Source: Bacillota bacterium
Lineage (GTDB): Bacteria; Bacillota; Limnochordia; Darwinibacteriales; Darwinibacteriaceae
Reading direction: 5' to 3'
Assembly (NCBI GenBank): GCA_030054835.1
Contig: JASGVS010000021.1
Coordinates: 6,079-70,078, forward strand
DNA: 64,000 bases
In this document: positions 38,123 to 57,319 of the stretch, in pieces
How positions within the stretch are numbered: position 1 is the stretch's first letter
Layout of the letters: each line of letters opens with the position of its first letter
Notes under the pieces: generated by a model
Databases searched by the model: none
The model's input: only the letters and a program-made list of their open reading frames with translations
Told to the model about the DNA's origin: nothing
Translations under genes and position numbers: made by a program

Positions 38123-38198
38123 TGGCGGGCCCGAGACGAATCGAACGTCCGACACATGGTTTAGGAGACCATTGCTCTATCCACTGAGCTACGGGCCC
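38123..38198 (-). tRNA. tRNA-Arg (anticodon CCT)
   Basis: Cloverleaf GGGCCCG/CGGGCCC acceptor, D-arm TAGCTCAGTGGATAGAGCA, anticodon stem ATGGT/ACCAT with loop CTCCTAA, T-loop GTTCGATTC, encoded CCA. Confidence 0.9.
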
Positions 38199-44707: not shown

Positions 44708-45379
44708 TCAGCCCACTTGATGGAGGATGGAATTGCCCTGTCTACCTGCCTCTAAGAGCCAACCCGCCTTCCTCAGCGTGTATGTAACCTTGCGGGCGGC
44801 CTGTTCCGATATCCGCGCCATATCTGCCAACTGTTTGTTTGTAAAGGGCTCAGGCAGATCGGACGGCAGTACTGACAGATAGTCCCCCGCTGACCCAAAC
44901 ACTTGCTTACCCGTCACTGCACAGAGGCGCCGATCTACGATGCTCACTCCCCTGCGACGCCAGCTGCCCCTGCCGTCATCGCAGCGGATCTCTTCCTCCA
45001 CTATATACACTGCTTCCACTGTTAGATTGGGATGGGGAAGGAATTGGGGAATGCGAATCAGCTCCCCGAAGAGATCGTAGATCGTGCCCTTTTTGGGTGA
45101 TCTGCGCCTGGTCAGCACCTCACCGGTAGTCTGATCCACATAAACGAGATACCGCTCCAGGGGGATGGGGAAAACCACATGGAGCCTGTAATTGGGCAGC
45201 AGGCTCCTTAGCTTTGGCTTCAGGGCAGAAAAATTGCCCGTTTGAATTTCAAGCAGGCAGTCCCCTTGGACCAGGTCGATAATGTAGCCATCCACTTCCG
45301 CTTCCACCCGAGCCCCGGGACGCCTGTAGTATTCCTTCAGACCCCCATGGAGGGAACCCTCGTTGCGGGTGCCGATCAT
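44708..45379 (-). CDS. hypothetical protein, PD-(D/E)XK nuclease-like N-region with C-terminal winged-helix-like segment
   Basis: GYIIDLVQGDCLLEIQTG resembles D...E.Q/K nuclease core; start ATG 45379 overlapping upstream stop as ATGA. Confidence 0.4.
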   Translation of the reverse strand: MIGTRNEGSLHGGLKEYYRRPGARVEAEVDGYIIDLVQGDCLLEIQTGNFSALKPKLRSLLPNYRLHVVFPIPLERYLVYVDQTTGEVLTRRRSPKKGTIYDLFGELIRIPQFLPHPNLTVEAVYIVEEEIRCDDGRGSWRRRGVSIVDRRLCAVTGKQVFGSAGDYLSVLPSDLPEPFTNKQLADMARISEQAARKVTYTLRKAGWLLEAGRQGNSILHQVG

Positions 45380-46653
45380 GCCCCTAGTCCCCAGAGCAGC
45401 CACACCAGCACATAACCGGTGGTAACGGCGGCCAAGGTGAAGGGAACGCTGAGCTTCATGAACTCCCCTGCCCCAACTTGGTACCCTTCCTTACTCAAAA
45501 GACCAAGGCCAGTAATATTGGCGGAAGCGCCGATGGGCGTTAAGTTCCCACCGAGGGTTGCTCCAATCAAGAGGGCGAAGTAAAGCAGATTGGGCTCGAC
45601 CCCTAAAAGGTTCGCTACGCCCTGTACCACTGGAAGCATGGTTGCCACATATGGTATGTTATCCACAAAGCCCGAAACTACAACCGAAAGCCAAACGATA
45701 ACGGTGTAAACGACAAAAACATTGCCCTGACCCAAGTTCGCAATGAACGAACTGATGCGGTCAATCACACCTACCTGGGTAAGGCCGCCGATCACAATGA
45801 AAAGACCGCCCAACAGAGCTAAGGTGAAGTAATCAATATCTACCAGCACGTCTTTAATGACCTGGGCACCTTTGCCTTTGGCCACCTCCCGCAGCAGACC
45901 TACTACTAACAGGGCTACGCAGATAAGTCCATTGGTGATGTCAGGCTTGTTCGGTATAAAGGAAGCTAGAATAAGTAGTACAATCATGGCAACCAACAGA
46001 TAGCCGGGGAAATAGTCCGTTACCTCCGTGCGCTCCTGGGGAGTAACCTCCTGTTTGTTGCTGCGCAGTACGAAAAAGAGGACTGCGGTGGCAGCGATGG
46101 CTCCAGCCTGAACAATCCAAAAAAGACCAGGTTTTCCCTGAATAAAGAAGAAGTCCAAAAAGTCCAAGCCCGCATGTCCACCCAGCATAATGGATGTGGC
46201 ATCACCAACTAGTGTGGCTGCCCCCTGTAGGTTTGAAGCGATGGACACTGCAATTACGCTGATCACCGGTGACACATTCTGCTTCTTGGCCACAGTGATG
46301 GCAATGGGAGCAACGATTAAAACGGTGGCAACATTATCCACAAAAGCGGAAATGGCGCCGGAAAACAGGGACAAGGCCACAATCGCCCAGCGGATGGTGG
46401 GGGTTTTTTCCAAAATCAGGTCGGCCAATAAAGCGGGCATGCCCGTGGCGATGAACATGGAGACAATCCCCATCGTCCCGGAAATCATTAAAATAACATT
46501 CCAATCAATGAATCCCAAGGCCGCGCTGCCGGGAACGATGCCGAGCACGATAAAAAGGAGGGCTGCCAGTACAGCCACATGGGCCCGGATCCGGGGAAAA
46601 GCGAGTAGTAATACGTAAGTTACGGCAAAGATAATTAAAGCAGTCTGCTCCAA
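45376..46653 (-). CDS. ArsB/NhaD-superfamily anion/cation permease (YbiR-like)
   Basis: 425 aa, ~12 TM with internal repeat typical of ArsB/NhaD/CitMHS superfamily. Confidence 0.65.
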   Translation of the reverse strand: MEQTALIIFAVTYVLLLAFPRIRAHVAVLAALLFIVLGIVPGSAALGFIDWNVILMISGTMGIVSMFIATGMPALLADLILEKTPTIRWAIVALSLFSGAISAFVDNVATVLIVAPIAITVAKKQNVSPVISVIAVSIASNLQGAATLVGDATSIMLGGHAGLDFLDFFFIQGKPGLFWIVQAGAIAATAVLFFVLRSNKQEVTPQERTEVTDYFPGYLLVAMIVLLILASFIPNKPDITNGLICVALLVVGLLREVAKGKGAQVIKDVLVDIDYFTLALLGGLFIVIGGLTQVGVIDRISSFIANLGQGNVFVVYTVIVWLSVVVSGFVDNIPYVATMLPVVQGVANLLGVEPNLLYFALLIGATLGGNLTPIGASANITGLGLLSKEGYQVGAGEFMKLSVPFTLAAVTTGYVLVWLLWGLGA

Positions 46654-46773
46654 CTTAAAAACCCTTCCTTCTATTTTGTTCCGTTCCTCAATTTACTTCT
46701 TCTTATCCCTGTAAATTCCTGTCGCATCTCGCAGGTCCCATCCCTTGGGGAAATCTGCTAGTGTGTGAAATCC

Positions 46774-46802
46774 TTGACTTAATTGCTGGGTATGATATGA
46801 TT
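46774..46802 (+). promoter_or_regulatory. candidate promoter for riboswitch-led transcript
   Basis: TTGACT at 46774-46779 followed 16-18 nt later by TATGAT/ATGATT/TGATTA; orientation fits downstream riboswitch. Confidence 0.4.
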
Positions 46803-46829
46803 ATTAAGGTAATCAAAAAACTCAAACTT

Positions 46830-46960
46830 TTTCACTCCGAATTTCCATCGGAAAGCGGGAGACCCATCTTTTTTTGGGGTGAATCCTGTTCATCAGGTAG
46901 GGCAGCTTGGGAGCCCGAACCCGTCAGCTAACCCCGTAGGAGTACCCCAGGCGTAGTGCT
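46830..46960 (+). promoter_or_regulatory. c-di-AMP riboswitch (ydaO/kimA class, RF00379-like)
   Basis: Contains the conserved ydaO-motif blocks GGGGTGAATCC, GGGAGCC and CCGAACCCGTCAGCTAACCCCGTAGG in the expected order; lies 5' of the mrp operon on the same strand. Confidence 0.65.
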
Positions 46961-47077
46961 TGCTTTTTGCAGCCTGCGCTTTTTCAATTGTCTGGAAAAA
47001 TTGCTGTGGGGTGATCTCTTGCTGACACGATGGGAAGTTTCTTTGCCATATTTCGGATACACATACAAGCCGTGTGA

Positions 47078-47125
47078 GGGGAAGGCCCGGCGCCAAACCC
47101 CGCCTTCCCGTACGGCTATATTTGT
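47078..47125 (+). terminator. hairpin + T-tract (possible expression-platform terminator)
   Basis: GGGGAAGGC-15 nt loop-GCCTTCCC stem followed by TATATTTGTGATTTTTTT, ~70 nt before mrpE start. Confidence 0.45.
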
Positions 47126-47194
47126 GATTTTTTTAACTTAGTGTTTTTCAACGATTTTGGTCTTACTACAAGTTCATGAAGAAGGTGGTTTAGC

Positions 47195-47773
47195 GTGAGT
47201 AAACGGTCCCTAACCCTAGCAGTTTTACTTTTGGCCTTTTGGCTCATCGCTGCGGGCAGCCTCAGCTGGCAGCATATTCTGGCCGGCGCAGTACTCAGTG
47301 TCATTACGATCTGGTTCTGGCACGACCTGGGGCCCCAGCTTCCTCGACTCCTGTCCTGGAGAGAGCTGGTTCAGCTGGGGAAATGCCTCATTCTCTTAAT
47401 CTATTATGTACTCCAATCCAACTTTGCAGTAATTAAAACGATAGTGTTTAACGTCCCCCGGGTGAGCCCCGTGTTTCTAGTGCTGGATCCCCCCTTGGAA
47501 ACCAATTGGGGCAGAGTGTTTTTGGCAACCTGCATCACTTTGACACCAGGGTCAGTCACGGTCGACGTTGACCCGAAGTCGGGGCGCTTCATCATCCACG
47601 CCCTGACTGAAGAAACCGCCATTGGTGTCATTTATTGGCGGATGATCGATGAAATAAGGAAGTTAGAAACTTACAGGCAGAGGAGGAGTGCCCATGTGGT
47701 GGATACTAGCAGGGCTTATGGTTCTGATTCTCGCAGTGCTCTTGCGGGCAATTCTGGGACCAACAGTAATTGA
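47195..47773 (+). CDS. mrpE: Mrp/Mnh antiporter subunit E (MbhA-like)
   Basis: GTG start with GAAGGTGG RBS; N-terminus LTLAVLLLAFWLIAAGSLSWQHIL typical of MrpE; 192 aa with ~30-aa C-terminal extension overlapping mrpF. Confidence 0.8.
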   Translation: MSKRSLTLAVLLLAFWLIAAGSLSWQHILAGAVLSVITIWFWHDLGPQLPRLLSWRELVQLGKCLILLIYYVLQSNFAVIKTIVFNVPRVSPVFLVLDPPLETNWGRVFLATCITLTPGSVTVDVDPKSGRFIIHALTEETAIGVIYWRMIDEIRKLETYRQRRSAHVVDTSRAYGSDSRSALAGNSGTNSN

Positions 47774-48005
47774 TCGCATGATCTCTATCAACGCCATAAC
47801 AAGTAAAATCAGTGCACTGATCCTGCTCACTGCGTTCGCTGGGGGCGAGTACGCCTTTGTGGATGTGGCTTTTGTATTTATGCTCTGCGGTTTTGCGGGC
47901 AGCCTCTGGATCATTAGAGTGCTTACCCCGGGAGACTGGCAGCTGAGAATACCGGGGCTGGCCGGATTTGAAGGTAACGGAGAGGAGGAAAAGGCCCATG
48001 ATTAA
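47694..48005 (+). CDS. mrpF: Mrp/Mnh antiporter subunit F (MbhB-like)
   Basis: GPTVIDRMISINAITSK matches MrpF signature GPT..DR..A.D; ATG 47694 with AGGAGGAG RBS. Confidence 0.8.
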   Translation: MWWILAGLMVLILAVLLRAILGPTVIDRMISINAITSKISALILLTAFAGGEYAFVDVAFVFMLCGFAGSLWIIRVLTPGDWQLRIPGLAGFEGNGEEEKAHD

Positions 48006-48309
48006 TTTTCTGGTCAACATCTGCTTTGCAGTATCATTGGTCGGCTTTATCCTAGGCGTTGTGGGCCTTTTTAGGTTTCCCGATCCCTACACGCGGATGC
48101 ACGCCATCTCGGTGGGCGACACACTGGGCATGGGTTCTGCCGTAATTGGGCTCCTGCTGCTCAGCCCCACCTGGATGATCCGACTCAAGCTCATCGTTAT
48201 GCTGTTTCTATTCTGGTTAATCAACCCCACCATGTCCCATTTGGTGGCCAAAGCGGGTTTATTACACGGAACGGAGCCTGTCCAGGGCACCAGATTGAGA
48301 AAGGGGTAG
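47998..48309 (+). CDS. mrpG: Mrp/Mnh antiporter subunit G (MbhC-like)
   Basis: RMHAISVGDTLG motif typical of MrpG; ATG 47998 with GGAGGAAAAGG RBS. Confidence 0.8.
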   Translation: MINFLVNICFAVSLVGFILGVVGLFRFPDPYTRMHAISVGDTLGMGSAVIGLLLLSPTWMIRLKLIVMLFLFWLINPTMSHLVAKAGLLHGTEPVQGTRLRKG

Positions 48310-48313
48310 GCAG

Positions 48314-48583
48314 ATGCAGTTTGTAGCTGTAGATTATTGGATTATGGCCCTGTCCTTAATCTTAATGGGCGCATCCTTGGCCCTGTTCTTTATTAAAGAC
48401 CTTATCCACGCAGTCATTGTCTATGGCGCCTATTCAGTCACCATGGCCGTTATTTGGCTGCTGATGAATACGCCTGACCTAGCCATTACGGAAGCGGCTG
48501 CGGGAATCTGTACCACTGTAATGATGATGGTGGCCATTTACCGCACGCGCCGCCCAAAAAAGGGGAACAAGGATGAAAATTAG
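48314..48583 (+). CDS. MrpB-related small membrane subunit (DUF4040, MbhD-like)
   Basis: 89 aa, 3 TM; position and size as MbhD in Mbh/Mrp modules. Confidence 0.65.
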   Translation: MQFVAVDYWIMALSLILMGASLALFFIKDLIHAVIVYGAYSVTMAVIWLLMNTPDLAITEAAAGICTTVMMMVAIYRTRRPKKGNKDEN

Positions 48584-48869
48584 ACACATTTTCGTTGCAG
48601 TCGTTGTCCTTTTGGCCCTGTTTGGCATGCTTTTGATGGTGGCCGAGCTGCCTCCTTACGGCAGCGCGGACAATCCTGGGCAGAACATGGTTGCCCAGCG
48701 TTACATCAATGATGCGCTGGAAGATACGGGCGTGCCCAACATGGTTACTGCCGTTGTCCTGGATTACCGCGCCTATGACACCATGTTTGAAACGATCGTT
48801 CTCTTCACCGCCGCTTTAGCAGTGGTGGTAGCGCTCAAACCAGCCGAAGAGGAAGGTGATGACGCATGA
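48573..48869 (+). CDS. small membrane subunit (MbhE-like)
   Basis: 98 aa, 2 TM, overlapping neighbours by 4-11 nt within the mrp module. Confidence 0.6.
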   Translation: MKIRHIFVAVVVLLALFGMLLMVAELPPYGSADNPGQNMVAQRYINDALEDTGVPNMVTAVVLDYRAYDTMFETIVLFTAALAVVVALKPAEEEGDDA

Positions 48870-49291
48870 GAGACTTTATCTTAAAACGCATGATTGCAGT
48901 CATCTTGGCTTTTATCTTTGTTTATGGTTTCTATGTTATCCTCCACGGCCACATTTCTCCCGGCGGGTCTTTTGCGGGGGGAATTATCGTGAGCTTAAGC
49001 TTTATTGCCTTTGCCACAGTCTACGGCATTGACAAAGGCAAGGAAAAACTCCCCGAGAAATTCCTGGTCTGGGTAGAAAGCTATGGGACTCTCTGGTACG
49101 GCCTGATGGGTCTGGTAGGCATCTGCAAAGGGGCCCCGTTTCTGGCCAACAAGCTGGCTGGAATTGACTTAGGTGTACCGGGTACGCTCTCCTCCGGCGG
49201 CCTGATCGGGCTCATCGGCTTCGGCGTGGGAATTAGGGTAGCAAGTACCATGATCACCTTATTTTACACGTTGATGGAGGGAGATGCGTGA
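48866..49291 (+). CDS. Mrp/Mnh antiporter subunit B-like (MbhF-like)
   Basis: 141 aa, 4 TM; MnhB-domain-like; ATGA overlap with upstream gene. Confidence 0.65.
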   Translation: MRDFILKRMIAVILAFIFVYGFYVILHGHISPGGSFAGGIIVSLSFIAFATVYGIDKGKEKLPEKFLVWVESYGTLWYGLMGLVGICKGAPFLANKLAGIDLGVPGTLSSGGLIGLIGFGVGIRVASTMITLFYTLMEGDA

Positions 49292-49665
49292 CAACGTTCC
49301 TTGAGAAACTTCTCATAAATTATCCCTATGTTATTTCCGTAATCCTATTTTTCATCGGCACACTCATCATCTTGACCCAGTCTAATCTATTCAAAAAGCT
49401 TCTGGGCATCAACGTGATGGAAACGGCCACTTTCCTGATGTTTATTGCCGCGGGCAACATCCGGGGCGGCGCTGTTCCTATCCTTAGTGATACGAACGCC
49501 CCTTACATCAATCCCCTCCCGTCCGCTTTGATGCTTACGGGCATTGTGGTCAGCATCAGCGTCACCGCCTTTGCCCTGGCGCTAATTCTGCGTCTTTACA
49601 GGGAATACGGTACGGTGGACGCCAATGAAATCGCCCGGTTGAGAAATGGGGGGATGGAAAAATGA
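49288..49665 (+). CDS. mrpC: Mrp/Mnh antiporter subunit C (NuoK-like)
   Basis: 125 aa, 3 TM, NuoK/MnhC-like conserved Glu-containing helices (NVMETATFLMFIAAGN). Confidence 0.8.
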   Translation: MTTFLEKLLINYPYVISVILFFIGTLIILTQSNLFKKLLGINVMETATFLMFIAAGNIRGGAVPILSDTNAPYINPLPSALMLTGIVVSISVTAFALALILRLYREYGTVDANEIARLRNGGMEK

Positions 49666-51158
49666 TGACAAGCTGGACTACCCATCTACCTGTATTTGTT
49701 GTCATCCTACCCCTTTTTGTAGGCTTTATTCTACCCACCCTGGCCCGCAGACTGAGGCTGGTTGAGAACTTGGTTATCGCAGTTGAAGTAGTCAGTTTCG
49801 TTATGGCAGCTGCCCTTGCGGTACTCCTTTTCAAACAGAACGGCAGCCCCATTCCCTATGCCATGGGCGGCTGGCCCGCTCCCTGGGGAATCCGCATTAT
49901 TGCCGATAACTTGGGCGTCCTGTTCCTGTTGGTTATAGCCATTGTAGGTCTGCCTATTGCCCTCTATACCAAGGGTAATTTAAAGGAAGAAGTTGGCGGG
50001 CGAAGCAGAACGGCTCGTTTCTACGCCCTCTATCTGCTGCTGATGGGAGCCCTGGCCGGGATGGCCGTCACCAACGACCTTTTCAACGTCTTTGTGTTGG
50101 TAGAGGTAGCCACCCTCAGCGCCTGCGGCCTGGTGAGTGCCCATAGAAATCCCAGAGCGGCAGAAGCTGCTTTCAACTACCTGATCCTAGCCACACTGGG
50201 TTCGGGCCTGGTCATGGGCAGCATCGGCTTTCTGTACATCACAACCGGTCATTTAAACATGGAGTTTGCGGCCCGGGAGCTTGCCCAAGTTTGGCAGCAC
50301 AGCCCACATGTGGTCTGGATGGCGGCCAGTTTTATGCTCACTGGCTTTGGCGTGAAGGCGGCTATGTTTCCGCTCCACGTTTGGCTGCCCGACGCCCACT
50401 CCATGGCACCCACTCCGGGCAGTGCGGTTTTGTCTGGACTAGCGGTTAAGGGCTACTTGATCTGCCTTTTGAAGATTTTGTACAACGTATTCGGCCAGAC
50501 GCTCATGCGCCACTTCACCATGCACCACGTGTTAACGGCGGCAGGCATCGCAGCCATTCTCGCCGGCTCCATCCTGGCCTTGAGACAGGATGAACTGAAA
50601 CGCAGATTGGCCTATTCCACCGTTGCCCAGGTTGGCTACATTATTCTCGGCTTCGGTTTTGTGAATCAAAGGGGATTAGCTGGCTCCCTCTTTTACCTGG
50701 CGAGCCACGCCTTGATCAAATCCACCCTGTTCCTGACGGCCGGTGCCATTATCAGTGCCACGGGCAAGACCAAGGTGAGTGAACTAGCGGGTGTTGGCCG
50801 GAAGATGCCCTTGACGATGGGTGCCTTTACGGTAGCCAGTTTGGGGCTCGTGGGTATTCCCCTCTTTTCCGGTTTTGTGGGCAAATGGCACCTGCTATTG
50901 GGCAGCTTCGAATCGGGCAACTTCGCTGCTGCCGCGGTGATCCTGGCAGGCAGCGTGTTCTGCGCAGCCTACCTATTCCCCATCCTGCGTAACGCATATT
51001 TCCAAGAGGCACCGGGCGAGAATTGGCAGGATCCCGGTATGGCTCAAAGGGCCGCCTTTGTGCTGTTGAGTGCAGCCATCATCTTTTTTGGCATCCTGCC
51101 TACACCACTACTAACCCTGGCTCAGCGAGCCGCGGCGGATCTGCTGTTCTTGCAGTAG
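49662..51158 (+). CDS. mrpD: Mrp/Mnh antiporter subunit D (NuoM/N-like proton-conducting subunit), copy 1
   Basis: 498 aa, 14 TM, conserved FPLHVWLPDAHS and Lys/Glu helices. Confidence 0.85.
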   Translation: MMTSWTTHLPVFVVILPLFVGFILPTLARRLRLVENLVIAVEVVSFVMAAALAVLLFKQNGSPIPYAMGGWPAPWGIRIIADNLGVLFLLVIAIVGLPIALYTKGNLKEEVGGRSRTARFYALYLLLMGALAGMAVTNDLFNVFVLVEVATLSACGLVSAHRNPRAAEAAFNYLILATLGSGLVMGSIGFLYITTGHLNMEFAARELAQVWQHSPHVVWMAASFMLTGFGVKAAMFPLHVWLPDAHSMAPTPGSAVLSGLAVKGYLICLLKILYNVFGQTLMRHFTMHHVLTAAGIAAILAGSILALRQDELKRRLAYSTVAQVGYIILGFGFVNQRGLAGSLFYLASHALIKSTLFLTAGAIISATGKTKVSELAGVGRKMPLTMGAFTVASLGLVGIPLFSGFVGKWHLLLGSFESGNFAAAAVILAGSVFCAAYLFPILRNAYFQEAPGENWQDPGMAQRAAFVLLSAAIIFFGILPTPLLTLAQRAAADLLFLQ

Positions 51159-51177
51159 GGGCGAGGAGGAGGAGAAA

Positions 51178-52623
51178 ATGATAAATCTGATCTTAGCCTT
51201 ATTAAGCGGAGTGGTTGGGGCACTTCTCACTGCCCTCATTCCCGCTAAAAACGACCGCCTGCGCACAACGGTTGTGTTTGCAGCCTTGGCATCCGCCCTG
51301 ATTTTCAGCTGGCGCACCGCCCTGCTCGTCTTCGCCGGAGCGGAGTTGGAGCTCACCTTTGGGCTCGCAGGTCTAACGTGGCGTTTGGCCCCGGATCCGC
51401 TGGGAGCCATGTTTGTCCTGATTGCCTCCACGCTCTGGTTGGTGGCAGGTCTTTATTCAGCGGGCTACATGGCAGGAAAAAGGAACCTCAAGAGCTATTA
51501 CTCCTTTTTCCTACTCGCCAACAGCATCACCTTAGGGGTAGCCTGCGCAGGCAACTTGGTCGCTTTATACTTGTTCTATGAGCTTTTGACATTGTCAACC
51601 TATCCTTTGGTAATTCACGAACGTTCGGCGGAAGCGGTGAAAGCTGGCGCAAAATACATCATTTACAGCCTATCAGGCGCAGGAGCGCTGCTGGCCGCAA
51701 TAGTCATTACCCATGCATTAACGGGCCATTCCGATTTCACCTCTGTTCCCGTTTTGGCAGGGCAGACTGGGAAAGGCCTGAACTGGCTGTTAGCCCTGTT
51801 TATTGCAGGTTTTGGTGTTAAAGCGGCGATTATGCCGCTCCACCGCTGGCTGCCAGAGGCCATGGTGGCACCGACGCCCATCAGTGCCCTGCTCCATGCG
51901 GTCGCAGTGGTTTATTCCGGGGTCTACGGGATTATTCGGGTTGTATACACCGTGTTTGGGCCTGAACTCATGTCCAGCCTGACCTTTGCCAAGGCTTTGC
52001 CTTGGATCGCTTCCTTTACCATTCTAGTTGGCGTCATGATAGCCACCAGGCAGGATGTACTGAAGAAACGCTTGGCTTACCATACTATCAGTCAGCTATC
52101 CTATATACTCTTGGGCGCCTTTACGCTCCAGCCTTTAGGCCTGAGCGGTGCCATGCTGCACATGATCAGCTATTCCCTTCTCAAAGTAACCCTTTTCTTC
52201 TGTGCGGGCATCATCGCCGAACAGACAGGTGAAACGGTCGTGAGCCGGATGGGAGGGGTCGGCTGGAGCCTGCCCAAGACGATGGCCGCCTTTGGCGTGG
52301 CCAGTCTGGGTATGGTGGGCATGCTGCCGCTGAACACCTTTTGGAGTAAGTACTACCTGATGCGGGGAGGCGTTGCCTCAGGCAGCTGGCCCCTGGCATT
52401 AGTCTTGATTACGAGCGGAATCATCAACGCTGTCTGCTTTATTCCCACAGTGGTTGCAGCCTTCAAGGGAGAAAGCCAAGGACGTGTCCATTTAGAGAGC
52501 GGCAGCAGCGTTTCCCTCATGCTCGTTCCTACCGTGCTTTTAGCAGGTATTTCCCTTTTAATTGGCCTCTGGCCCGGCCTAGTCTGGGACGGGGTGCAGG
52601 CTGTTGTTAACTCGTTTTTCTAG
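51178..52623 (+). CDS. Mrp/Mnh antiporter subunit D-like, copy 2
   Basis: 481 aa; MPLHRWLPEAMVAPTP motif; NuoM/MrpD family. Confidence 0.85.
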   Translation: MINLILALLSGVVGALLTALIPAKNDRLRTTVVFAALASALIFSWRTALLVFAGAELELTFGLAGLTWRLAPDPLGAMFVLIASTLWLVAGLYSAGYMAGKRNLKSYYSFFLLANSITLGVACAGNLVALYLFYELLTLSTYPLVIHERSAEAVKAGAKYIIYSLSGAGALLAAIVITHALTGHSDFTSVPVLAGQTGKGLNWLLALFIAGFGVKAAIMPLHRWLPEAMVAPTPISALLHAVAVVYSGVYGIIRVVYTVFGPELMSSLTFAKALPWIASFTILVGVMIATRQDVLKKRLAYHTISQLSYILLGAFTLQPLGLSGAMLHMISYSLLKVTLFFCAGIIAEQTGETVVSRMGGVGWSLPKTMAAFGVASLGMVGMLPLNTFWSKYYLMRGGVASGSWPLALVLITSGIINAVCFIPTVVAAFKGESQGRVHLESGSSVSLMLVPTVLLAGISLLIGLWPGLVWDGVQAVVNSFF

Positions 52624-52634
52624 CGAAAGGAGGT

Positions 52635-54545
52635 ATGGTCATGCTGCTTTTACTACTTGTGCTGCTTCCCTTGGTGGGGGCACTGGCTCTGCTTTTTGAT
52701 AAAAAGCGGGCATGGAATATCCCCCTGCTCACGTGCAGCCTTGTTCTGGCACTGGCCATTTTCGGGCTCAAGCCAGTCTTTGGGGGAGGTACAATCAGCT
52801 ACACACTGAACCTGCCGGGGCCCTTCGCCCCTGTACTGCAGGCCGATCCCCTCACAGCCATTTTCGTCATACTCGCGGCTCTCCTGTGGTTCGCGGTAGC
52901 CATCTACGCGCCCAAGTACATGGTACATGAAGGGAAGGTCAAGTTCTTTGAACTGGTCACCCTGCTCACCTATTCGGCTGTTCTGGGCGTCTTTCTAGCA
53001 GGCGATCTTGTGACAATGCTCCTGTTCTTTGAACTGATGACAATTACGTCTTTCTTCTGGGTTGTCCATCGCTGGAACCGGGAAGCGATCAGAGCCGGTT
53101 ACTTTTACCTGTTCTTCAGCATCATCGGCGGACTGCTCATCGCGCTAGCCATAGTGTTTCTGGGTGCATCTGCGGGACTACCCCTGCCCCTTGGGGCTGG
53201 TAGGCTGACGCCCTCTAACCCAACTCTTTTTGCTTGGGCTATTGGTCTTCTGCTAGCAGGTTTCGGCATCAAGGGCGGGATGGCCCCGCTCCATGTGTGG
53301 CTTCCCCACGCCCACTCCAACGCCCCCACACCGGGTAGTGCCCTGTTATCCGGTCTGCTCATTAAAGTGGGTGCTTACGGCTTGATCCGTGTGGGCGAAC
53401 TGGCCGGCTGGGGTATCACTTTAGGAGCCGGTACCGCTTGGCTCAGTACAACCATAACGCTGCTGGGCCTTTTGACCATGTTGGTTGGTGTGGCCGCAGC
53501 TCTGCTGCAGGGTGACGGCAAAAGGCTCCTTGCCTACCACAGCGTGAGCCAGATGGGTTATATTATCCTGGGCATTGGTGTCGGTCTCTACCTGGGACCG
53601 GATGGCGGACTGGGACTGGTCGGCAGCGTTTATCATATTGTGAACCACGCCCTCTTTAAAGCCACCCTCTTTTTGGGTGTGGGCGTTATCTACATCCATA
53701 CTAAAGAAACGGACCTTTACAAACTCGGCGGTCTTTGGCGTCGTTTCCCCGTGACAGCTGCGCTCATGTTCCTCGCTGCCCTGGGCATTGCGGGAGCTCC
53801 CGGGCTGAATGGTTATGCTAGTAAGACGGTGCTGCACCATGCGGTAAGCGCCGCGGCAGCAAGCGGAGAGACATGGCTGATTTGGGTAGAGAGGCTCTTT
53901 AACCTGGTGGGAATCGGCACCGCCGCTTCCTTCGCTAAGCTTTTTTACCTCATCTTCCTCGGTAAACCGACGGAGCTGGAAGTGGCGGAAAACGAATCAC
54001 CCCGCCTGCAGATAGCCATGGGGGTGTTAGCAGCTGTTATGCTCACCATCGGGCTTGCACCCCAGCTGTTCCCTAACGTTTTGGGTCTGCCCGCAGCGGA
54101 GTCTTTGGGTTTTGCTAAGCTTGAACCCATCCCAGGTTCCCTCTTCTGGAACTTCACCGACCTGAAGGGTATTGCCATCACCCTGGCCTTAGGTATTGGC
54201 GTGTGCTGGGCTGGGCTAAAAAGCGGTGCATTCCACTGGCACCCGCCCCTTTGGCTCAGTCTGGAAGGCCTGGGCGGTAAGGTATACCTGGCAGTGGCCT
54301 TCCTCTGGACAAAGGGAATCGCCCTTTACCACAGCCTAACCAAAGGCCTGGGCAGGGCAGGAAGATTCTTGGCAGGCAAGGTGTCCGCCGCTTACAGCGA
54401 CTTGGTCAACCCTAAGGATGGGGCGGCCTTAACAGGCATCAGCGCAACTGCTGCACTTTTGATCCTGACACTACTGGCCCTAATTGCCTGGTACACCATG
54501 ATCAATCCGGTGTTTAATGTAGTGAAGATTGTGCTTCAGTGGTAA
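52635..54545 (+). CDS. MrpA/NuoL-like large antiporter subunit (third NuoL-family subunit)
   Basis: 636 aa; APLHVWLPHAHSNAPTP motif, extra C-terminal TM segments; RBS GGAGGT. Confidence 0.8.
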   Translation: MVMLLLLLVLLPLVGALALLFDKKRAWNIPLLTCSLVLALAIFGLKPVFGGGTISYTLNLPGPFAPVLQADPLTAIFVILAALLWFAVAIYAPKYMVHEGKVKFFELVTLLTYSAVLGVFLAGDLVTMLLFFELMTITSFFWVVHRWNREAIRAGYFYLFFSIIGGLLIALAIVFLGASAGLPLPLGAGRLTPSNPTLFAWAIGLLLAGFGIKGGMAPLHVWLPHAHSNAPTPGSALLSGLLIKVGAYGLIRVGELAGWGITLGAGTAWLSTTITLLGLLTMLVGVAAALLQGDGKRLLAYHSVSQMGYIILGIGVGLYLGPDGGLGLVGSVYHIVNHALFKATLFLGVGVIYIHTKETDLYKLGGLWRRFPVTAALMFLAALGIAGAPGLNGYASKTVLHHAVSAAAASGETWLIWVERLFNLVGIGTAASFAKLFYLIFLGKPTELEVAENESPRLQIAMGVLAAVMLTIGLAPQLFPNVLGLPAAESLGFAKLEPIPGSLFWNFTDLKGIAITLALGIGVCWAGLKSGAFHWHPPLWLSLEGLGGKVYLAVAFLWTKGIALYHSLTKGLGRAGRFLAGKVSAAYSDLVNPKDGAALTGISATAALLILTLLALIAWYTMINPVFNVVKIVLQW

Positions 54546-54547
54546 GG

Positions 54548-54580
54548 CGGGGCCGCTTAGGCGGCCTCTTCTTTATCTAA
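54548..54580 (+). terminator. rho-independent terminator after mrp module
   Basis: GGCGGGGCCGC-TTAG-GCGGCCTC followed by TTCTTTATCT. Confidence 0.7.
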
Positions 54581-54603: not shown

Positions 54604-54632
54604 TTGACATTGAGCAGCGGAATTGGTACAAT
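54604..54632 (+). promoter_or_regulatory. sigma-A promoter of leuS leader
   Basis: TTGACA-17 nt-TACAAT. Confidence 0.8.
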
Positions 54633-54639
54633 AATACTG

Positions 54640-54872
54640 ATATACAAAAATCGATGCAACGACGATGAACAGGAGTAGTACGGAAACCTTTTCAGAGAGT
54701 TGTTGGGTGGTGGAAAACAACATTCTTCCGGAACTCGCCTGGGAGTTGCTGGAGTGAATTTGATTAACCCCAGCCGGTCATTCCGTTATCATGTCGAGGG
54801 GGCGGCTGTTTGCCGTCAATTAGAGTGGTACCGCGGATCTTCCGTCTCTAGCTAGAGAGGAAGATTTTTTAT
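54640..54872 (+). promoter_or_regulatory. T-box riboswitch leader (Leu, specifier CUC)
   Basis: Stem I with GA/K-turn (GATGAAC...GAGTAGTA) and AGAGA element, specifier GAA-CUC-G (54734-54736), T-box sequence AATTAGAGTGGTACCGCGG (54818-54836), terminator GATCTTCCGTCTCTAGCTAGAGAGGAAGATTTTTT. Confidence 0.9.
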
Positions 54873-54907: not shown

Positions 54908-57319
54908 TTGCCAAAATACAATCCACAAACAATAGAAAAGAAATGGCAGAATATCTGGGACAACGAGCAGGTTTTTCGCACCAGCGACGATCGCAGTAAG
55001 AAGAAATTCTATGCTCTGGTGGAGTTCCCCTATCCATCGGGGGAAGGCCTGCATGTGGGGCACCCACGCCCTTATACTGCCATGGACGTAGTCGCCCGTA
55101 AACGCCGCCTGGAAGGTTACAATGTCCTCTTCCCCATGGGTTGGGACGCCTTCGGACTGCCGGCGGAGAACTACGCCATTCAAACTAAGATCCATCCGTC
55201 AATTGTTACGGAGCAGAACATTGCCCGCTTTAAGCAGCAGCTGCAATCCTTAGGTTTTTCCTTTGATTGGTCCCGGACAGTGAACACTACTGATCCCCAC
55301 TATTTCAAGTGGACCCAGTGGATCTTCCTCAAGCTGTTCGAAAAGGGCCTTGCTTACAAAGCGGAAATGCCCATCAACTGGTGCCCCCGCTGTAAGATCG
55401 GCTTGGCCAATGAAGAAGTGGTGGACGGAGCCTGCGAGCGCTGTGGTAACGAAACGGAAGTCAGGGTGAAGAACCAGTGGATGCTGAAAATTACCGCTTA
55501 CGCCGAGCGGTTGATTGAAGATCTGGATCTGGTCGATTACATTGAACGGGTTAAAATCCAACAGCGCAACTGGATCGGCCGCTCCGAAGGGGCGGATGTA
55601 ACCTTCAAACTGAAAGATACCGCTGAAGAGCTGGTAGTCTTTACAACCAGGCCCGATACGTTGTTCGGCGCCACCTATATGGTCATTTCGCCTGAACATC
55701 CCATTTTGGCGAAGCTGCAGGATCGCATTACCAACATGGATGAAATCGAGGCTTACCAAAGGGAAGCTCGGAAAAAGACCGAATTCGAACGGGCCGAGTT
55801 GAACCAAGATAAAACGGGTGTGCCCGTGAAAGGCGTAACCGCTATCAATCCGGTTAATAACGAAGAGATTCCGGTTTGGATCTCCGACTACGTACTGATG
55901 AGCTACGGCACTGGAGCGATTATGGCTGTTCCCGGCCACGACCAGCGGGACTGGGAATTTGCTAAAGAGTTCGATCTGCCCATTATTGAAGTGGTCCAGG
56001 GCGGAGATGTGACCCAGGAGGCTTACACCGATACCCAGAGCGGAATAATGGTCAACTCGGGCTTCCTCAACGGATTGGAAGTAGCAGAGGCCCAGAAGAA
56101 GATTATTGCCTGGCTCGAGGAAAAGGGTCTCGGTACTCCTAAAGTCAACTACAAGCTGAGGGACTGGGTTTTCTCCAGACAGCGCTACTGGGGTGAACCG
56201 ATTCCCCTTGTTCACTGTAAAGAATGCGGCTGGGTCCCGGTTCCCGAGGAGGAACTGCCGGTACGCCTGCCCCAGGTGGCCAATTACGAGCCTACCGACA
56301 CTGGTGAATCGCCCCTGGCTAACATTAGGCATTGGGTAGAAACCAGCTGCCCCAAATGCGGTGGCCCGGCTGAGCGGGAAACGGATACCATGCCCCAGTG
56401 GGCCGGTTCTTCCTGGTACTTCCTGCGCTACACCGATCCCCATAACGATAACGAACTTGCGAGCCGGGAAAACCTTGATTACTGGCTGCCGGTGGATTGG
56501 TACAACGGTGGTATGGAGCACACAACCCTCCATCTTCTGTACAGCCGCTTCTGGCATAAATTCCTCTACGACATTGGGGTTGTCCCCGGTCCCGAGCCTT
56601 ACCAAAAGCGGACCAGCCACGGCATGATCTTGGGTGAAAACAATGAGAAGATGTCCAAGTCCAGGGGCAACGTGGTTAATCCCGATGACGTGGTGAACGA
56701 ATACGGAGCGGATACGCTGCGCATGTATGAGATGTTTATTGGCGACTTTGAAAAGAGCGTACCGTGGAGTACGGATGGGGTGCGGGGCTGCCGCCGCTTC
56801 CTAGACAGGGTCTGGAAACTGCAGCCCATGCTCGTGCGGGGTACAGCTTACAGCTCTGAACTGGAAACGCTCATGCATCAGACGATAAAAAAGGTAAGCA
56901 ATGACTACGAAGAACTCAAGTTCAACACAGCCATTGCCCAACTCATGACCTTCGTGAACGAAGTGTACCATCTGGGCCGGATCAATGAGGCGGAAATGAA
57001 AACCTTCCTGATTCTGCTCAACCCGGTTGCTCCCCACATTACGGAGGAGATCTGGGAAAGGCTCGGCTTTCCGGGCATGCTCAACGAACAGAGCTGGCCC
57101 ACTTACGACGAGGCCAAAACAATTGCCCAGACCATCGCCATCGGCGTCCAGGTTAACGGGCGAGTTCGGGGCGAGATCACGGTCAACATCGACGACCCGG
57201 TGGAAGTGGCTAGGCAAAAGGTGATGGAAAACGAAAACGTTCGCCGCATGATCGAAGGCAAACAGATTGTCAAAGAAATCTATGTTCCAGGCCGCATTTA
57301 CAACATCGTGGTAAAATAA
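54908..57319 (+). CDS. leuS: leucine--tRNA ligase
   Basis: 803 aa; HVGHPRPYT (HIGH), KMSKS present; N-terminus near-identical in pattern to B. subtilis LeuS; TTG start with AGGGAGG RBS. Confidence 0.95.

Follow-up and report, generated by a model that had tools for sequence, protein, structure and literature searches.

In Gram-positive bacteria, cyclic di-AMP (c-di-AMP) is the essential second messenger for osmotic and K+ homeostasis, and in Bacillota a low level of it signals K+ shortage or hyperosmotic stress. The regulon described for c-di-AMP riboswitches comprises K+ importers, amino-acid and osmolyte transporters, and cell-wall enzymes. When c-di-AMP is high, riboswitches of this class turn off K+ importers and osmolyte systems (PMC6488665; PMC7266159). 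In Cyanobacteria, the ydaO-yuaA regulon includes a COG1055 NhaD-type Na+/H+ antiporter and a tauCAB-like nitrate/sulfonate/bicarbonate ABC transporter (Sun et al. 2013, PMC3766115, supplementary file 6). Dehalobacter sp. CF carries a tandem logic gate in which a Na+ (DUF1646) and a c-di-AMP riboswitch each have their own terminator (White et al. 2022, PMC9337991), and the c-di-AMP unit of this gate is an OFF switch with its terminator apart from the aptamer (PMC9337991). Here we describe a ydaO-class c-di-AMP riboswitch in a 64,000-nucleotide stretch of DNA from a Bacillota bacterium (assembly GCA_030054835.1, contig JASGVS010000021.1, positions 6,079 to 70,078; hereafter the window, numbered from its first letter). 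This element is probably an OFF switch that acts on the transcription of a stand-alone Mrp cation/proton antiporter of ten subunits. The elements of the leader that carry this reading are:

46774–46801, + strand: sigma-70-type promoter, TTGACT-16 nt-TATGAT with an extended -10 TG; 10 of 12 consensus positions matched
46825–46957, + strand: c-di-AMP riboswitch aptamer (RF00379, ydaO/yuaA class), conserved core 46835–46940; Rfam match, helices kept in orthologues
46949–46985, + strand: T1, intrinsic terminator and predicted riboswitch expression platform; by folding, stem ~46951–46979 followed by UUUUU at 46980–46984

A scan of the whole window against Rfam returned three families above their gathering scores. 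Among them was RF00379, the c-di-AMP/ydaO-yuaA aptamer, which matched at 46825–46957 on the + strand over the full model (positions 1–134 of 134; E = 1.2e-19 for the whole window and 1.1e-21 for the leader only). The original prediction, made from the sequence and its open reading frames (ORFs), had placed a ydaO-class riboswitch at ~46830–46960, pointed to its conserved blocks and named a covariance-model search with RF00379 as the check. That search was significant (89.6 bits against a gathering score of 38), and the blocks were all located: GGGGTGAATCC at 46876–46886, GGGAGCC at 46909–46915 and CCGAACCCGTCAGCTAACCCCGTAGG at 46915–46940. The core blocks of the family, CCGAAU, GGGGUGAAUCC and CCCGAACCCGUCAGCUAACCnCGUAGG, are likewise all present.

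For comparison, we collected 80 loci by alignment of MrpE homologues, drawn from species-representative genomes that are nearly all Bacillota metagenome-assembled genomes (MAGs) of anaerobic digesters. The nearest relatives by MrpE identity are L001 (74%), L088 (70%) and L089 (71%). Across the window and 32 orthologues (33 aptamers), 20 nested pairs of the aptamer helices were kept and 4 pairs had compensatory changes. The window pseudoknot contains one non-canonical pair, which is common to L001, L088 and L089. We considered whether the element could be a look-alike that senses another ligand, or nothing, since variant or degenerate copies stand at the same genomic position in three other loci (L029, L039 and L046). 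The window copy, in contrast, scores more than double the gathering value against the full RF00379 model, with its conserved blocks all intact, and its sole non-canonical pseudoknot pair recurs in the three nearest relatives; we therefore regard a look-alike as very improbable. Judged by its sequence, the window element is a true and ordinary representative of the well-known c-di-AMP riboswitch class, and is predicted to bind c-di-AMP.

The promoter upstream of the aptamer was similarly conserved. Of 46 distinct orthologous leaders, 41 have a promoter of the form TTGACT...TGnTAnnAT upstream of the aptamer and at a constant spacing from it; the -35 element and flanks of this promoter are identical in L001, L088 and L089. 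The TTGACT/-10 candidate proposed earlier corresponds to this site. From it, transcription would start at ~46808. In a promoter scan of 46400–47400, the site at 46774 was the only + strand sigma-70-like site, and none was found downstream of a second leader hairpin, T2, which is described below.

T1 lies directly 3' of the 3' strand of aptamer helix P1 (which ends at ~46940), without overlap, and its stem runs into GCGCUUUUUC. On a rough d'Aubenton-Carafa-type score it reached +3.9. A T1 homologue, consisting of CCAAGCG, a variable hairpin and GCGCUUUUUU, followed the aptamer in ~40 of 43 distinct orthologous leaders. A separate terminator after the aptamer is the layout described for OFF-acting c-di-AMP riboswitches (PMC9337991). 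As judged from the aligned leaders, the conserved expression platform of this riboswitch is T1 and not the hairpin T2. No compensatory pairs could be counted in T1, as its outer stem (AGCG/CGCU) is invariant and its inner stems are too length-variable to align. The loop of aptamer helix P7, (A/G)CUUGG at 46905–46911, has a CUUGG core that is invariant in 20 aligned mrp-linked aptamers, in contrast to the Rfam consensus, where this loop is poorly conserved. This core is complementary to the 5' arm of T1 at 46946–46952, whose sequence is CCAAG among the relatives and, in the window, CCAGG. The pairing is a possible candidate for a ligand-sensitive antiterminator or kissing contact.

The riboswitch precedes ten consecutive + strand ORFs (47195–54545), matched by the Pfam families MNHE, MrpF_PhaF, PhaG_MnhG_YufB, MbhD, MbhE, MnhB, Oxidored_q2 (MrpC) and, three times, Proton_antipo_M. 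The ten-gene Mrp/Mbh-type operon of the original prediction is in this way assigned gene by gene:

47182–47773, + strand: mrpE with its ribosome-binding site AAGGTGG (47182–47188); GTG at 47195, 192 amino acids (aa); Pfam MNHE, 89.5 bits
47718–48005, + strand: mrpF (Pfam)
47998–48309, + strand: mrpG (Pfam)
48314–48583, + strand: mbhD-like gene (Pfam; NCBIfam, C-terminal part of MrpA)
48573–48869, + strand: mbhE-like gene (Pfam; NCBIfam, C-terminal part of MrpA)
48866–49291, + strand: mnhB (Pfam)
49288–49665, + strand: mnhC (Pfam)
49662–51158, + strand: MrpD-like antiporter subunit (NuoL/M/N-type), 498 aa (Pfam Proton_antipo_M; NCBIfam)
51178–52623, + strand: MrpD-like antiporter subunit (NuoL/M/N-type), 481 aa (Pfam Proton_antipo_M; NCBIfam)
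52635–54545, + strand: MrpA-N/HyfB-like antiporter subunit, 636 aa (Pfam Proton_antipo_M; NCBIfam)
54549–54578, + strand: operon-end intrinsic terminator, GGGGCCGC-TTAG-GCGGCCTC followed by TTCTTTATCT; score +19.5

The mrpE GTG lies six nucleotides after AAGGTGG. Junctions from mrpF to mnhC overlap or are at most 4 nt long, and those of the whole operon overlap or are at most 19 nt long. The three Proton_antipo_M proteins were matched with Pfam E values of 1e-50 to 1e-55. With MbhD and MbhE together representing the C-terminal part of MrpA, homologues of all seven subunits MrpA–G are present in one operon. No hydrogenase or oxidoreductase module adjoins it: a terminator, a promoter, a T-box and leuS follow downstream, and a divergent CitMHS gene stands upstream. 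From its gene content, the operon is a stand-alone Mrp system with Mbh-like gene order and no redox module. An identical MrpE was found on 261 contigs, annotated as coming from Bacillota and Limnochordia MAGs, and on 6 conspecific contigs the mrpE locus is the same and the gene is called identically. We also observed that MrpE carries a hydrophilic C-terminal tail of ~50 aa (residues ~142–192; window 47620–47773), which is conserved in the clade, has the consensus ...QRRAxHVVDTGxxYGxDSxGTLAGDxRxDSH and lies outside the MNHE model (residues 10–141).

The association between riboswitch and operon extends well beyond this genome. Among the 20 best loci, 19 have an Rfam match to RF00379 upstream of mrpE and in the same orientation. 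With an nhmmer profile built from the Rfam-found aptamers, we detected an upstream aptamer in the orientation of mrpE in 49 of the 61 loci with MrpE identity of at least 44%; this count takes in three sub-threshold copies (L029, L039 and L046) and L026, whose aptamer region is partly N-masked. In all 49 aptamer-bearing loci the aptamer is on the same strand as mrpE, and in the window it occupies a 5' leader position downstream of the promoter. Only five of the 12 clade loci without an aptamer have enough upstream sequence to be informative, most of the 12 being contigs cut too short. The same nhmmer search found no aptamer in the 19 more distant loci (MrpE identity of 39% or less). Genomes with the association are labelled Limnochordia, Hungateiclostridiaceae, Caldicoprobacterales, Halanaerobiales, Hydrogenispora, Herbinix and Oscillospiraceae, among others. 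Since the aptamer recurs at this rate, the promoter is found in the large majority of leaders and the helices are maintained, these comparisons argue strongly for a conserved regulatory unit made up of the riboswitch and this Mrp clade, and they reinforce the regulatory link that had been proposed from the window alone.

Some members of the clade carry unusual copies. Sub-threshold ydaO-like elements with T1 kept stand before mrpE at L029:90–211, L039:~2700–2830 and L046:~2830–2940. Those of L029 and L039 share the same altered core, in which GGGGUGAAUCC is replaced and CCCGAACCCGUCAGCUAAC has become CCCUGUUCCGGCGGAUAAC. To judge from these changes, the sub-threshold elements could represent decay or a variant aptamer with altered specificity. 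The aptamers at L022:1039–1181 and L040:1226–1342 have insertions of ~40 nt and 15 nt, respectively, in the variable hairpin between GGGGUGAAUCCUG and CAGGUAGGG, and still score well.

The distance between aptamer and mrpE differs among the loci. A distance of ~1.7 kb separates the aptamer from the downstream mrpE in ~30 loci, and the gap is filled by a gene (sulP) for a 500–540-aa protein with Sulfate_transp and STAS domains, whose nearest solved relatives are SLC26Dg and BicA; NCBIfam DauA and BicA scores were below their cut-offs. The sulP-mrpE junctions are 7–118 nt long and contain no terminator-like element. In a second, direct type, comprising the window and 14 other loci, the aptamer is 62–424 nt from mrpE, and several of these gaps, of just 62–96 nt, have space for T1 only. 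Truncated sulP genes were observed in L015, L035 and L043. On a neighbour-joining MrpE tree, loci with sulP are widespread and occupy basal positions, and the direct state appears in at least 8 separate places, which indicates repeated loss of sulP. On this evidence from gene order and phylogeny, the ancestral regulated unit in the clade is riboswitch-sulP-mrp.

The three nearest relatives of the window all keep sulP, in CitMHS/riboswitch/sulP/mrpE synteny, and comparison with them accounts for the segment between T1 and mrpE, which contains the following features:

46997–47160, + strand: sulP remnant, 165 nt in place of the relatives' 1.5-kb SulP/STAS gene; flanks align to L001, L088 and L089, the middle does not
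47008–47141, + strand: retained sulP start, with the Shine-Dalgarno (SD) sequence GGGGTGATC at 47008–47016 and TTG at 47019; MAFFT alignment with the sulP starts of L001, L088 and L089
47060–47134, + strand: hairpin T2, core stem 47079–47086/47102–47109 with a 15-nt loop, outer stems to 47060/47126, and A+U7 at 47127–47134
47119–47142, + strand: second sulP relic, which supplies the U-run of T2; ATATTTGTGATTTT corresponds to the STAS-domain codons I-C-D-F and is out of frame with the remnant ORF

Between the promoter and the end of T1, the window is nearly identical to L001, L088 and L089, and homology resumes at GGGGTGATCTCTTG, which holds the sulP SD and TTG. The first five sulP codons (L-x-x-R-W) are retained in alignment with the same relatives. 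At 47119–47132, ATATTTGTGATTTT matched nt 1311–1324 of L001 sulP at 14 of 14 positions (blastn-short, E = 0.004), and the homologous sulP position gave 15 nt at 93% in L088 and 20 nt at 90% in L089. Directly in front of the mrpE GTG, a stretch of 28 nt shows 96% identity to L001. Segment 46997–47160 no longer encodes the Sulfate_transp or STAS domains that the intact orthologues of relatives both have, a tblastn search found no SulP encoded anywhere in the window, and a longer ORF from 46956 had no Pfam match. When the filler was compared with the 80 related loci, blastn returned nothing beyond chance, and the relics emerged on direct comparison with the sulP genes of the nearest relatives. 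The sulP SD, start and codons, the STAS fragment and the conserved flanks together identify 46997–47160 as the leftover of sulP after internal deletions. Read in this way, the alignment indicates that the window lineage deleted sulP and kept its ribosome-binding site and start codon.

Within this remnant lies T2. The original prediction had reported a strong hairpin with a T-run (47078–47125) before the mrpE GTG. The hairpin is present, with core arms GGGAAGGC and GCCTTCCC (47079–47109) within a longer imperfect stem (47060–47126), a folding energy of -29.7 kcal/mol and z = -3.75 relative to shuffled sequences; the riboswitch's own terminator is T1 instead. T2 is not a canonical terminator, as it has a 15-nt loop and two internal loops and was not called by the terminator scan. 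Its terminator score was -22 to -57 in every register, compared with +3.9 for T1 and +19.5 for the operon-end terminator, owing to the 15-nt loop, the internal loops and a weak 4-bp outer stem between core and U-run. U7 follows directly after this weak outer stem, so that partial terminator activity is possible and T2 may attenuate some read-through. Neither the sulP-mrpE junctions of 26 relatives nor the remainder of the window contain T2, which by this comparison is lineage-specific.

We considered several other origins for T2 and rejected them. A repeated or mobile element was rejected because no second copy of T2 or the filler was found in the window with up to 3 mismatches allowed; internal repeats of the leader amounted to two short imperfect direct repeats. 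An Rfam scan of 46650–47250 at E values up to 10 gave, beyond RF00379, only a group II intron (14 bits, E = 4.8) and BTE (13 bits, E = 9.9), and a second aptamer or Na+ riboswitch (DUF1646 motif) between T1 and mrpE (46985–47195) was rejected for want of a significant Rfam match. The group II-like match, which would make T2 a remnant of intron domain V, spans 47068–47117 and shares AGCCGU.UG...CGUACGGCU, the base of T2 being AGCCGUGUG...CGUACGGCU. We judged this non-significant match to be due to chance, because the domain V loop would have to carry an insertion of 19 nt and sulP relics otherwise account for the region. A second hairpin or leader ORF shared among direct-type leaders was also rejected, as the hairpins before the ribosome-binding site in L013, L036, L056 and L060 have no common sequence or ORF design.

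The stability of T2 and the seven U residues that follow it raise the question of whether the riboswitch still controls the operon. It could be orphaned, with T2 ending those transcripts that escape T1 and mrp transcribed from its own unrecognised promoter (47135–47195) or by another sigma factor; the riboswitch would then be a recent relic that yields a short RNA only. The operon-end terminator of the same genome also has an interrupted U-tract, five relatives (L038, L048, L049, L051 and L053) run the operon without an aptamer, and within-species data cannot demonstrate selection on the aptamer. Nevertheless, only 60 nt separate T2 from mrpE, leaving little room for another promoter, and they contain no sigma-70-like site. 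The loop structure and terminator score of T2 also set it well apart from both T1 and the operon-end terminator. Promoter, aptamer and T1 are preserved as well as in species that keep sulP, and 14 other lineages have the aptamer directly before mrpE, so that direct control of mrp is recurrent and stable. Furthermore, T2 lies inside an ORF with a strong SD, and translating ribosomes would tend to melt it. With this poor score, the location in a strong-SD ORF and the absence of a sigma-70-like promoter in the 60 nt before mrpE, T2 is unlikely to insulate the operon, and we consider an orphaned riboswitch unlikely.

The same ORF suggests a different possibility. An ORF and SD scan identified a 40-codon remnant ORF, LLTRWEVSLPYFGYTYKPCEGKARRQTPPSRTAIFVIFLT*, that runs from TTG 47019 to a stop at 47139–47141 and reads through T2. 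The leader could therefore contain two checkpoints, in which T1 senses c-di-AMP and T2 is a translation-dependent attenuator of the pyrBI type: a ribosome on the 40-codon ORF (47019–47141) would prevent T2, and expression would also depend on the coupling of translation and transcription. The near-perfect SD GGGGTGATC stands 2 nt before TTG 47019, with its GGAGG-equivalent core 7 nt from the start codon, and the ORF spans the entire hairpin and stops 5 nt past the U-run. However, the SD and start codon are simply inherited from sulP, the body of the ORF is unique to the species and has no homologue, and no similar ORF-over-hairpin design was found in the other direct-type leaders. That the U-run of T2 is an out-of-frame relic of sulP also points to accident and not design. 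A second, translation-dependent checkpoint thus appears improbable, somewhat more so than an orphaned riboswitch.

The reading that we favor remains an OFF switch in front of the Mrp operon. Transcription would start at ~46808 from the promoter at 46774–46801. With abundant c-di-AMP, the aptamer (46825–46957) would fold around its ligand, T1 (46949–46985) would form and RNA polymerase would stop. At low c-di-AMP, T1 would be bypassed, and the transcript would cross the 165-nt sulP remnant, presumably reading through T2, into mrpEFG-mbhDE-mnhBC-mrpDDD. This would switch on Na+ extrusion alongside the systems for K+ uptake and osmolytes that are under riboswitches of this class elsewhere. We infer the OFF logic from the architecture and from family precedent, and Na+ is the predicted transported ion. 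A Na+-extruding Mrp complex that is derepressed together with K+ uptake at low c-di-AMP would fit a salt-stress response.

Several observations weigh against this reading. Minimum-free-energy folding of truncated and full leaders gave no convincing antiterminator, with T1 present in every structure. T2, with its stability (-29.7 kcal/mol, z = -3.75) and U7, could terminate a fraction of the read-through. All NCBIfam equivalog scores for this Mrp clade are below their cut-offs, and its ion specificity is a prediction. The five relatives named above have the Mrp operon without an aptamer detectable by nhmmer or Rfam, so this control is dispensable. In these, 1.4–3 kb of upstream sequence was searched and no other Rfam family was found, and L038 still has sulP; the comparison indicates that the riboswitch was lost or replaced in some lineages. 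The aptamers of L029, L039 and L046 are below the Rfam gathering score (32.4 bits for L029, and no match at E up to 1 for L039 and L046). Lastly, the leaders of the 6 conspecific contigs and of a seventh with a 99%-identical MrpE differed from the window by 6 SNPs (single-nucleotide polymorphisms) in 547 nt, too few to show purifying selection on the aptamer since the loss of sulP.

Other features were observed around the operon. A divergent gene for a 425-aa transporter of the CitMHS/ArsB/NhaD superfamily (45376–46653, - strand) adjoins the riboswitch promoter. The same divergent CitMHS neighbour is present in L088, which suggests that the intergenic region 46654–46773 probably holds a second promoter on the opposite strand. 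After the operon terminator there is a near-consensus promoter, TTGACA-17-TACAAT, at 54604–54632, and a T-box leader (RF00230, 127.8 bits; 54656–54852) precedes leuS, which encodes a leucyl-tRNA synthetase of 803 aa (54908–57319). A tRNA-Arg gene with anticodon CCT lies at 38123–38198 on the - strand.

Both the riboswitch class and the Mrp operon type were already known, so the finding extends a known regulon and does not represent a new kind of element; our thinking on how riboswitches or Mrp complexes work is unchanged. What appears to be new is the riboswitch-Mrp association, its breadth of ~50 species-level genomes and the ancestral sulP-mrp architecture. A literature search that included the RegPrecise-based regulon paper and its supplements found no report linking a c-di-AMP riboswitch to Mrp/Mnh or SulP, although a passing mention in the original gene lists (Block 2010, Nelson 2013) is possible. 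As a single-subunit Na+/H+ antiporter under ydaO was listed in 2013, the link to Mrp will seem plausible to a specialist and not startling. The association spans several Bacillota orders, and its prediction is that a fall in c-di-AMP derepresses Na+ extrusion and K+ uptake together. Anaerobic digesters are salt- and ammonium-stressed systems dominated by uncultured fermenters, and for these organisms the association offers a concrete connection, open to testing, from c-di-AMP to the sodium cycle. The locus also displays gene loss within a riboswitch-controlled operon, in which the translation start and a few codons of the deleted gene survive between the switch and the next gene.

A broader interpretation can be offered tentatively, and we think it less likely to be right than wrong. 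Riboswitch-sulP-mrp could be an unrecognised arm of the c-di-AMP regulon in anaerobic Bacillota, in which a Na+-coupled SulP importer of bicarbonate or dicarboxylate and a Na+-recycling Mrp complex are co-induced at low c-di-AMP. The species of the window would have been pared down to Mrp, with the remnant ORF and hairpin as a possible residual second checkpoint. If true, this would tie c-di-AMP to the sodium cycle and to pH or carbon balance, beyond K+ and compatible solutes.

Among described systems, the closest are the ydaO (kimA) and ktrAB riboswitches of Bacillus subtilis and the kdpFABC riboswitch of Bacillus thuringiensis (PMC6488665), which resemble the window element in their RF00379 class and in their position in a leader behind a sigma-A-type promoter. 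They are also alike in having a terminator directly after the aptamer, in acting as OFF switches and in preceding a cation-transport operon of osmotic or K+ homeostasis. Whereas those switches control K+ importers, the target here is a multisubunit Mrp complex, joined in the ancestral unit by a SulP/STAS anion transporter, in an uncultured Limnochordia-like lineage of Bacillota from anaerobic digesters. The cyanobacterial regulon (PMC3766115) pairs a Na+/H+ antiporter with an anion, possibly bicarbonate, transporter, as sulP and mrp do, but its antiporters are single-subunit, its anion transporter is an ABC system, it belongs to another phylum, and no Mrp or SulP is listed in it. The Dehalobacter sp. 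CF gate likewise links sodium biology to c-di-AMP, and the window leader also has two successive hairpin and U-run elements. In contrast to that gate, the window leader has no Na+ riboswitch match, and its second hairpin is a relic of sulP and not an aptamer platform.

For the operon itself, all seven Mrp families of Bacillus mrpABCDEFG and Pyrococcus MbhA–H are also found here, and the order E-F-G-(MbhD)-(MbhE)-B-C-D matches MbhA–H. A further resemblance is that MrpA is split into a NuoL-like part and MbhD/MbhE pieces. The differences are two extra antiporter-like subunits (three in total), the absence of an adjacent redox module, the MrpE tail of ~50 aa, and scores that all fall short of the NCBIfam equivalog cut-offs. 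Finally, in the SbtA-linked system, an Mrp-like complex that extrudes Na+ shares its regulation with a Na+-coupled importer of anions, which offers a rationale for the ancestral sulP-mrp operon; that system differs in that its regulator is a protein repressor and its transporter is SbtA rather than SulP.

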